A stretch of 64,000 nucleotides of DNA from Candidatus Sulfomarinibacteraceae bacterium. GTDB taxonomy: Bacteria > Acidobacteriota > Thermoanaerobaculia > Thermoanaerobaculales > Sulfomarinibacteraceae. Position numbers: made by a program. The stretch is from positions 64,001 through 128,000 of the forward strand of contig CAWCLO010000001.1 in assembly GCA_963796455.1 (NCBI GenBank). The letters are read 5' to 3'. This document shows positions 33,801 to 36,800 of the stretch, piece by piece (position 1 is the first letter of the stretch; each line of letters opens with the position of its first letter).

Positions 33801-36800
33801 CGGAACCCCGAGTATCACGCCTTCAAATGCCGCTGAAACCGTGCCGGAGTAGTGGACATCGGCCCCCATGTTGAAACCGAAATTGATTCCCGAAACCACG
33901 AGGTCCGGCGGCCGGCCCTTCATCAGTTTTGAAATAGCGATGGCCACGCAGTCGGTGGGCGTGCCATCGACCGCCATTCGGTGTTCCCCCAGACGTTTGA
34001 CCCGTAACGGACGATCCAGGGTCAGGGCATGGGACACCGCCGATTGTTCGCTGTCGGGAGCCACGACCCACACCTCTCCGAGCACATCGAGTGCGTCGGC
34101 GAGGATCTGGATGCCTTCCGAGGTATATCCGTCGTCGTTGGTGACCAGGATTCGGGGACGTTCTGCCATCGGGGGATTCTAGCGCAGCGCAGGGTGGAAA
34201 GGGGGCAGAGGAGAAAAGGAGAAAGGGGGAAAGGGGGAATCCAGATCGATTTCGGATTTGGGATTTCGAATTTCGAATTTTCGGCGTGTCCACTGTTGGC
34301 AGAGGGGCGGAGGGGCGGAGGGGCAGAGGACCCGCTCGGCATCCTCGCTATCGCTATCGCTATCGGAATCGCTGTCGAACGGCTGTTGTGGAAACCCTTC
34401 CCGAATGGAAGTGTCACCGCCCGATGTCATCCTGAGCGGAGCCCCCCAGGGGCGCAGTCGAAGGATCTATGAGATGAATGGAACAACCTCAGTTCGCAGA
34501 TCCTTCGACTTCGCGCCGAAGGCGCTACGCTCAGGATGACATCTTGAACGACAGTTCCGATCCCGTTCCCCTTCCCGTTCCCGACAGCACGAGCGAGAAT
34601 CATAGTGATGGACTCATTCAAGCGATTGAAGCTGCCCCTAGATTGTGCGATAATTCACATCCGCTTGAGGCGATAGGTAAAGCCTCGCGAATCCACGAAT
34701 TACCCTGCGAAGGGAGCACATATGAAGCGAGAAATCCTCCTCGGGGATGAAGCGATCGGTCTCGGCGCCATTGACGCCGGGCTCAGCGGCATCTACGGCT
34801 ATCCAGGAACGCCATCTACCGAAATATTTGAATTTGTCGAACGGCGCACCAAAAAGGCCGGCGATATCCACGCCTTCTGGTCGACCAACGAAAAGGTGGC
34901 CTACGAAGAGGCCCTCGGGATGAGCTGGGCAGGCAAACGCGCCCTCGTCTGCATGAAACACGTCGGCCTCAACGTCGCCGCCGATGCATTCATGAACTCA
35001 GCCGTCACTGGAACCAACGGCGGTCTGGTGTTGGCCGTGGCCGACGACCCCGGGATGCACTCTTCGCAGAACGAGCAGGACAGCCGGTTTTTCGCTCAAT
35101 TCGCGCTCATCCCCTGTTTCGAGCCACGCAACCAACAGGAATGTTACGACATGATGTTCGAGGCCTTCGAGCTCTCCGAGGAGCTGTTGTTGCCGGTGAT
35201 GGTCCGCCTGGTAACCCGGATCGCCCACAGCCGTTCCGGGGTCGAAACCCGCGAGCGCCGACTGCAGAATGAGCTCCAACCAACCCGGGAGATCAAAAAA
35301 TGGACCCTGCTCCCAACCAACGCCCGGGTCCAGTACAAACACCTCACTGAAAAACAACCGGAGCTCCTGCGTCGAGCGGAAGACTCGAGCCACAACGAAC
35401 TCGTGCTCAAAGGAAGTTCGGGAATCCTCGTCTGCGGTCTCGGCGACAACTATCTCCGGGAAAACCTCGAGTCGGATCACGAGTATTCGATCCTGAGTGT
35501 GCGCCAATACCCCCTCCCCTCGGGGAAGGTCCGCGAGTTGGTGGACCACGTCGACGATCTCCTGGTGATCGAGGACGGTTATCCCCTGGTCGAAAGCATG
35601 GTCCGCGGGCTCTTCGGCATCCAGGGCGTCGAAATCAAGGGCCGGATGACGGGCGAGCTGCCCCGCACCGGTGAGCTGACGCCGGATGTCGTGCGCACCG
35701 CGCTCGGGCTCGAGCCTCGACCCACGGCCCATGAGCCCGAAACCGAAATTGCCAACCGGCCGCCGGCTCTGTGCAAGGGCTGCCCCCACACCGACTCGTT
35801 CCGAGCCCTCAACGAGGCCCTCAACATTTTCGACAACCCTCAGGTCTTCTCGGACATCGGCTGCTACACCCTGGCCGCCCTGCCGCCGCTCGAAGCGGTT
35901 CACAGCTGCGTTGCAATGGGCGCTTCGATCGGGATGGCTGCCGGCGCGGCTCATGCCGGTTATTCTCCGGCAGTGGCCGCAATCGGCGACAGCACCTTCT
36001 CCCACGGCGGCATCACGCCGCTGTTGTCCGCGGTTCAACAAAACGTCAACCTCAATGTGCTGGTTGTCGACAACAGCACCGTCGGGATGACCGGCACCCA
36101 GCGCTCCATGTCCACGGGTTCGACGCTGGATCAGATCATTCTCGGAACCGGCATCTCGGAGGATCACTTCCGGATCATCGAGCCCACTCCACGAAATCAC
36201 GATCAGAATGTGGAGGTCATGCGCGAAGAGCTCGCCTTCGACGGTCCGAGCGTGATTGTCGCCCGCCGCGCCTGTATCGAAGCGCTCAAGACCAGAGCGA
36301 ACTGAGGACCAAATACGATGGAAAAGAACATCATCCTCGCCGGTGTCGGTGGCCAGGGCATCCTGTCCATCGCCTTCGTGATCGACAATGCTGCGCTCGA
36401 CGCAGGGTTTCACTTCAAACAAGCCGAGGTTCACGGCATGGCGCAGCGCGGCGGCGCGGTGCAATCGAACCTCCGTTATGGCGACTCGGAGATCTACTCC
36501 GACATCATCCCCAAGGGTAAGGCCGATATCGTGCTTTCGGTGGAACCGCTCGAAGTCATGCGCTACCGCCACTATCTCCGACCGGGTGGTTGGGTGGTGA
36601 CCAGCACCACCCCGTACGTCAATATCCCGGACTATCCGGAAATCGACACCCTGCTGGCGGATCTCGCAGATCTCGACAATATCGTCATGGTCGACACCGC
36701 CCACTTCGCCCGCGCCGCCGGCAACCTCCGGGCGCAGAATATGGTGGCGGTAGGCGCAGCCTCGCCGTTGCTAGATTTCGAAGAGGACCGGCTCCTCGCT

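Follow-up and report, generated by a model that had tools for sequence, protein, structure and literature searches.

The repeat at positions 34423–34543 of the window (the whole stretch of 64,000 nt that was analysed) is probably a gene-less head-to-head dimer of a TGTC-tagged single-stranded-DNA hairpin of the CGTC-REP and Ssn-related-motif class. We are highly confident of the class itself, in which the element would be a variant with a mismatched stem of the CGTC-tagged REPs or Ssn-related motifs (Di Nocera 2013; Chenal 2025), and we put the chances that an Ssn nuclease was the mobiliser at about even. The repeat is real and abundant, and its copy number and position differ between congeners. 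Within the source genome, selfish or relic DNA is the likeliest reading, not a new RNA. The first-pass annotation had placed the unit at the same position, which our analysis confirmed, and had described it as a cloverleaf-like four-way junction of ∼116 nt, present in 92 complete copies.

Each half is ∼45 nt long and folds on itself through ATCCT/AGGAT, reading in order TGTC tag, ATCCT, GA, GC, G-N-A, a variable tip hairpin, G-N-A, GTC, GA, AGGAT and a tail. Half 1 occupies 34425–34468 on the + strand (pattern match 34426–34467), with its TGTC tag, ATCCT/AGGAT stem, GA.GA mismatch, GNA/GNA internal loop, variable tip hairpin and tail, and half 2 occupies 34498–34541 on the − strand (pattern match 34499–34540) as an inverted unit whose tip hairpin differs from that of half 1, making the pair a heterodimer. 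GA.GA and GNA motifs in DNA hairpins form sheared pairs. The GNA/GNA form was present in 161 of the 208 halves of the genome, and the N bases were complementary in only 28 of these 161. The inner spacer (34469–34497, no strand assigned) is conserved in length, diverged in sequence and without a stable fold of its own; genome-wide, 63 of 67 inner spacers were distinct and their own folds ranged from 0 to −5.5 kcal/mol. The dimer as a whole, to which no strand is assigned, carries a 9-nt near-palindrome, GATGWCATC, at each end. It is preceded by a partial, diverged copy of a co-amplified 'A' flank (34400–34422, + strand) and followed by a co-amplified 'B' flank (34544–34575, + strand) that runs into short tandem units, the boundaries of both flanks being approximate.

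The dimer sits in a 552-nt spacer between two genes given for context only, a SurE family gene on the left (33390–34169, − strand) and a gene for a 2-oxoacid:ferredoxin oxidoreductase-type subunit on the right (POR_N and TPP_enzyme_C; 34722–36305, + strand). The dimers sit in mosaics of 6–9-nt tandem units, here at 34200–34380, and the same units appear again in numerous spacers of the genome and genus. Just ahead of the start codon, the final ∼70 nt of the spacer are conserved, possibly as a leader or promoter element. The second dimer of the window (24631–24786, no strand assigned) has its halves at 24634–24675 (+) and 24742–24783 (−), and a smaller related hairpin is nested in it at 24675–24703 (−). 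Eight such nested copies of the smaller hairpin occur in the genome, and their position within the inner arm is identical in every case.

Our scan of the genome (5.02 Mb, 10 contigs, 90.5% complete) reproduced the number of conserved boxes counted earlier, 244 at one mismatch or none and 538 at up to two, and gave 208 exact boxes; the window holds two dimers only, that is, four boxes against 0.16 expected. The 92 box pairs lying 64–192 nt apart were also recovered, with the qualification that seven of them reuse the same right box and a few are deleted or degenerate, and when both halves were required the 92 complete copies were reduced to 80 dimers. The pattern for a half matched 208 times, with 160 matches in the 80 dimers and 48 unpaired, a few of the latter being due to chance, and the pairing length was 110–119 nt in 67 of 96 pairings. 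The ∼116-nt boundaries proved too narrow, as conserved sequence extends ∼45 nt past one end and ∼25 nt past the other. The 45-nt A flank occurred 84 times, 69 of them with a full half after it, and the B flank adjoins the other dimer end. Composite units also form tandem arrays of three or four, with periods of ∼135–360 nt, at C4:880452–881119, C4:895965–896517, C5:62937–63768 and C4:1291645–1292100. All 80 dimers were intergenic by our own gene calls. They occupy 72 long spacers (median 728 nt), of which 31 lie between co-directional, 24 between divergent and 17 between convergent genes. An apparent enrichment between divergent genes was lost once spacers were matched for length (24 of 72 spacers vs 28–30% of long element-free spacers; Fisher p 0.33–0.60).

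A candidate partner for the repeat was found in other genomes. At two loci (L106 and L022) of the at least 134 listed pattern loci, only ∼80 of which have full flanks, a gene for a GIY-YIG protein (PF01541) of 92–108 aa lies between two inward-facing halves. A search with the L106 protein yielded 586 confirmed metagenome loci, and among the best 80 of these an exact box lay no more than 300 nt away in 70, an exact box lay on both sides of the gene in 48 and a full half was present in 68, fractions that are upper bounds for the family, since the query protein was itself drawn from a locus flanked by the motif, which biases its nearest relatives toward the motif, and these loci are not independent of one another. 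Among those of the best 80 with full flanks, a box was proximal to the gene in 37 of 42 and at the distal control in 1 of 42. Related genomes held 14 small GIY-YIG genes (13 of 61 genomes); stem variants with this architecture flanked 11 of the 14, a further variant, read by eye, flanked three, and the exact box flanked only one. The same arrangement of gene and repeat was present on a Planktothrix plasmid (L268), where the gene and its repeats lie between an MmeI-like restriction-modification gene and DISARM drmA. At another locus, in Sinorhizobium meliloti (L269), the palindromic repeat flanking the homologous nuclease is a different one, and it too is missed by the published search pattern for Ssn-related motifs (SRM).

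The partner proteins resemble the nuclease of the Neisseria repeats. We compared 30 of them with the NTS-flanked protein of N. gonorrhoeae, which we infer to be the orthologue of SsnA, the protein used in PMC11893778 being that of N. meningitidis according to its text. Twenty-nine of the 30 matched it with E ≤ 8.5e-19 and a cover of at least 86%, and the same 29 fell within the limits for SsnA homology (E < 1e-10, at least 75% cover, <150 aa). Identities to this protein were 41–52%, the L106 protein reaching 52% over 86 aa. Judged by these alignments, the small GIY-YIG proteins beside the half are Ssn homologues. In a tree the canonical NTS-flanked proteins formed a supported clade of their own and the backbone was without resolution. 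The domain was recognised as PF01541 by Pfam, NCBIfam gave nothing, and a search of solved structures with the partner protein returned only a weak UPF0213 match.

In the source genome itself, no small GIY-YIG gene, intact or broken, was found by Pfam, tblastn or a custom profile at its 90.5% completeness (best profile E 24; control 2.5e-38), and a DUF559 partner had no match in the genome. Its own long GIY-YIG protein, which we take to be UvrC, did not match the N. gonorrhoeae protein flanked by NTS. The arrangement described for SRM, with hairpin repeats on the flanks of a small single-domain GIY-YIG gene, was found in other genomes and not in the source genome. The published SRM search pattern gave 33 matches in the genome, none of which overlapped any half, and was found within 500 nt of the nuclease at none of 94 loci; the same pattern does match the Neisseria and Azospirillum loci. 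The element thus behaves like an SRM, yet it lies outside SRM as defined by the published pattern. Several results count against the nuclease reading: no small GIY-YIG gene was found in the source genome, the published pattern misses all copies and all 94 nuclease loci, the gene is present at only two of the pattern loci listed, and the canonical NTS-flanked proteins keep to their own clade.

The source organism is probably an acidobacterium, since one congener and a Thermoanaerobaculales record have a half-unit in common. Comparison with congeners, which are ∼80% identical to the source genome in genes, gave signs of mobility and turnover. Exact halves numbered 172 in the source genome vs 0–23 in each of 24 congeners, whose fragmented assemblies undercount. 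The orthologous SurE–oxidoreductase spacer was complete at 18 of 21 congener loci, and this dimer was absent from all 18; the spacers held instead one stem-variant pair, one single variant half, one variant interrupted by IS110 and several unrelated palindromes. The spacer (window 34170–34721, L237–L257) is a hot spot, 134–1473 nt long in the 18 congeners and filled with species-specific palindromes. In one congener (L250:296–1229) an apparently frameshifted IS110-family transposase (PF02371) lies inside the variant hairpin repeat, which suggests that IS110 targets these REPs.

The proposed mechanism is as follows. An Ssn-type nuclease would bind the hairpin in single-stranded DNA and cut a few bases 5′ of the tag, like SsnA of Neisseria. 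In a head-to-head dimer each strand has one forward half at its 5′ end, so that both outer ends would be cut, and the unit would spread in REPIN fashion when the cut is repaired or copied from. This hairpin would then be the target of a related branch of Ssn, with the head-to-head dimers as its non-autonomous units, in the way that REPINs serve RAYTs. A lineage-specific expansion of one composite (A flank, dimer and B flank) may have produced the ∼80 copies, with the nuclease gene since lost or in the unassembled part, and the copies would now be undergoing reshaping by inversion, collapse and nested insertion. Since the amplified unit reaches past the predicted cut sites and no nuclease gene was found, simple excision or cut-and-paste does not fit, and host recombination may account for the spread.

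One alternative is that the repeat class is as we describe it and its copies owe their spread not to the nuclease but to host recombination, gene conversion, slippage among the long mosaic spacers or another enzyme, any nuclease link being ancestral only. We consider this unlikely, and it is the alternative that survives best. The genome with the most copies has no nuclease gene found, and ∼70 nt of flank travels with the dimer amid short tandem repeats common to many spacers. Furthermore, the inner part was flipped relative to the flanks in 12 dimers and unflipped in 59, and at three sites, C1:618887(+), C1:321448(−) and C10:743949(−), the A flank was joined straight to the B flank with the dimer absent. 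These junctions may be either pre-insertion sites or collapses. From the flipped segments and the A–B junctions we conclude that recombination therefore acts on these units. However, a tag-polarised event is indicated by truncated duplications: in three sets of halves, truncated copies of tag and left arm lay upstream of 28 of 208, 22 of 200 and 9 of 189 halves, whereas truncated right arms lay downstream of only 1, 3 and 0, so that the duplications were 5′-only by 59 vs 4 over the three sets. Such 5′ polarity would fit cutting next to the tag. In addition, congeners bearing the nuclease tend to be richer in halves that fit the general pattern, with a median of 48 (n = 5) vs 7 (n = 19), in a hand count across non-independent kin with fragmented assemblies.

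The first-pass annotation had taken the whole unit for a structured RNA, and we examined its fold directly. The whole unit is very stable (z ∼ −9 as DNA; −76 kcal/mol as RNA), the tip hairpins covary, and transcribed REP dimers have been proposed to act on mRNA in the text of PMC3733652, all of which would suit a structured non-coding RNA or an mRNA four-way junction that, for example, stabilises transcripts or stops transcription. However, of 132 strand folds at minimum energy with RNA parameters, 118 were plain hairpins and only 12 had the four-way junction, and with DNA parameters 73 were plain, 46 four-way and 13 three-way. The four-way junction was not confirmed as the preferred fold. Solitary halves exist (48 of the 208 matches). 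The outer and inner helices of the cloverleaf (P1 and P3) arise because any inverted duplicate yields them. Covariation was assessed in other genomes with the stem triplets left free, the stem being invariant within the source genome. Full pairing within the half was found in 174 of the 199 distinct halves at protein-fetched loci and in 188 of the 202 at pattern-fetched loci; where the left arm was a variant, it paired fully with the right arm of the same half in 46 of 62 and 49 of 59 cases, respectively, against shuffle means of 3.2 and maxima of 10 and 9 in a control that ignores kinship. Among distinct head-to-head dimers elsewhere, 56 of 91 had unequal left arms, with P1/P3 letters that differ between halves, and 46 of these 56 keep both internal stems, although many of the stem differences between halves are C/T and one dimer strand could still form a G.U pair. 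Selection therefore acts on the half hairpin, as this covariation within halves, unequal dimers included, indicates. We conclude that what is conserved is the fold of the individual half, a hairpin, and that the cloverleaf arises from aligning two inverted halves with unlike tips; the four-way RNA junction as the conserved unit is rejected on the within-half covariation and the predicted folds. Further points against a transcript element are that the dimers show no orientation preference relative to co-directional genes (16 vs 17), that their median distance is 260 nt to gene ends and 339 nt to gene starts, and that no terminator-like site was found at the elements. Among the sequencing runs listed there was no RNA holder and all shares were under 0.2, which weighs neither way. 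An RNA role is, in our judgement, very unlikely.

It is very unlikely that the element is a REPIN, or a classical MITE, mobilised by a RAYT/IS200-type or DDE transposase for which the 16-nt terminal inverted repeats are the recognition sites: the inverted doublet resembles REPINs as they are described in the text of PMC3116915, GATGWCATC at both ends with the three single-copy sites can be read as target duplication, and six Y1_Tnp transposase genes are present, but the nearest half is at least 19.7 kb from each of the six, the gene between halves elsewhere is GIY-YIG, and the 9-mer belongs to the element's own arm, with collapse by deletion explaining the single-copy sites equally well. A RAYT partner was rejected, there being none near any half.

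The TGTC-tagged hairpin repeat is very widespread. An exact-pattern scan of GTDB contigs returned at least 134 loci in many phyla, bearing out the spread across phyla claimed for the motif. No Rfam family matched at its gathering score, the only matches being to miRNA precursors and well under the threshold (34 bits vs 137), again as stated before. Of the description as a very widespread, undescribed structured repeat, the words widespread and structured and the lack of an Rfam match hold; the class, by contrast, is already in print, as the texts of PMC3733652 and PMC11893778 show. Literature searches, which covered text and not figures, found no paper that names this sequence variant, and a full-text search with motif strings gave no paper with a title on bacterial repeats among the matches listed. 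The motif was likewise absent from the searched supplements of PMC11893778 and PMC3733652, an absence on which the figures, being outside that search, may bear.

If the proposed mechanism holds, the Ssn nuclease/repeat system extends to a very widespread target of another structure, one not caught by the published search, so that the range of the system would be undercounted. It would also offer new candidate enzyme–target pairs for single-strand DNA tools and a testable answer to a question left open in 2013, namely what makes CGTC-type REPs. More tentatively, we propose as a possibility that the partner proteins form an unnamed, very large Ssn-type branch that recognises hairpins with purine–purine mismatches and would be the missing 'transposase' of TGTC-tagged REP dimers, the counterpart of RAYTs and REPINs; the 5′-only duplications would then be footprints of cutting in vivo, and the ∼190-nt composite a captured passenger that the nuclease spread ∼80 times in the source genome.

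Among known systems, the closest is that of NTS/SRM repeats and Ssn (cd10448 GIY-YIG). According to the text of PMC11893778, the cuts that SsnA makes in single-stranded DNA lie a few bases upstream of a CGTC-tagged hairpin and are confined to one strand, and the enzyme tolerates loop extensions and lowers transformation; a role in repeat expansion is raised there as a possibility only, mobilisation not being shown in that text. Like the NTS/SRM repeats described there, our half has an HGTC tag followed by AT, a hairpin and an unpaired tail, flanks a ∼95-aa single-domain GIY-YIG gene (in other genomes) and occurs in hundreds of intergenic copies without the gene, and it can be viewed as carrying a long insert at the loop position, where SsnA tolerates extension. 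Unlike the 28-nt NTS/SRM of that text, it is ∼45 nt long, and its 5-bp stem leads into GA.GA and GNA/GNA mismatches and then into a tip hairpin that varies. A further difference is that searches of the source genome returned no nuclease gene, and cleavage of this half would be expected by analogy with SsnA.

Another close system is the CGTC-tagged REP superfamily. Our element shares with it, as set out in the text of PMC3733652, a TGTC/CGTC tag, AT at stem positions 1–2 and a tendency to form head-to-head dimers, often heterodimers, with 20–100-bp spacers, intergenic and with no adjacent transposase. We found such a tag (CGTC, TGTC or CCTC in the superfamily, TGTC here) unpaired at one end of the half, with AT at stem positions 1–2, and 160 of the 208 halves lie in head-to-head dimers that are intergenic in all 80 cases. 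CGTC-1 to CGTC-4 have 8–9-bp stems and 4–5-nt loops (consensus compared by text, not figure), in contrast with the 5-bp stem, GA.GA mismatch and long variable arm seen here; the text further states that Di Nocera et al. excluded any repeat whose stem had more than one mismatch, and that no transposase came to light. Also unlike the CGTC-tagged REPs of that text, this element lies far from gene ends and has no convergent bias. With REPINs and RAYTs, as described in the text of PMC3116915, it shares an inverted REP doublet with a spacer as the likely replicating unit, its non-autonomy and a single-strand hairpin logic, and it differs in partner, a candidate GIY-YIG nuclease vs an HUH tyrosine transposase, and in tag, TGTC vs GTAG. 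No cognate RAYT gene flanked by the repeat was seen, and the gene that two inward-facing halves enclose in other genomes is a small GIY-YIG gene.
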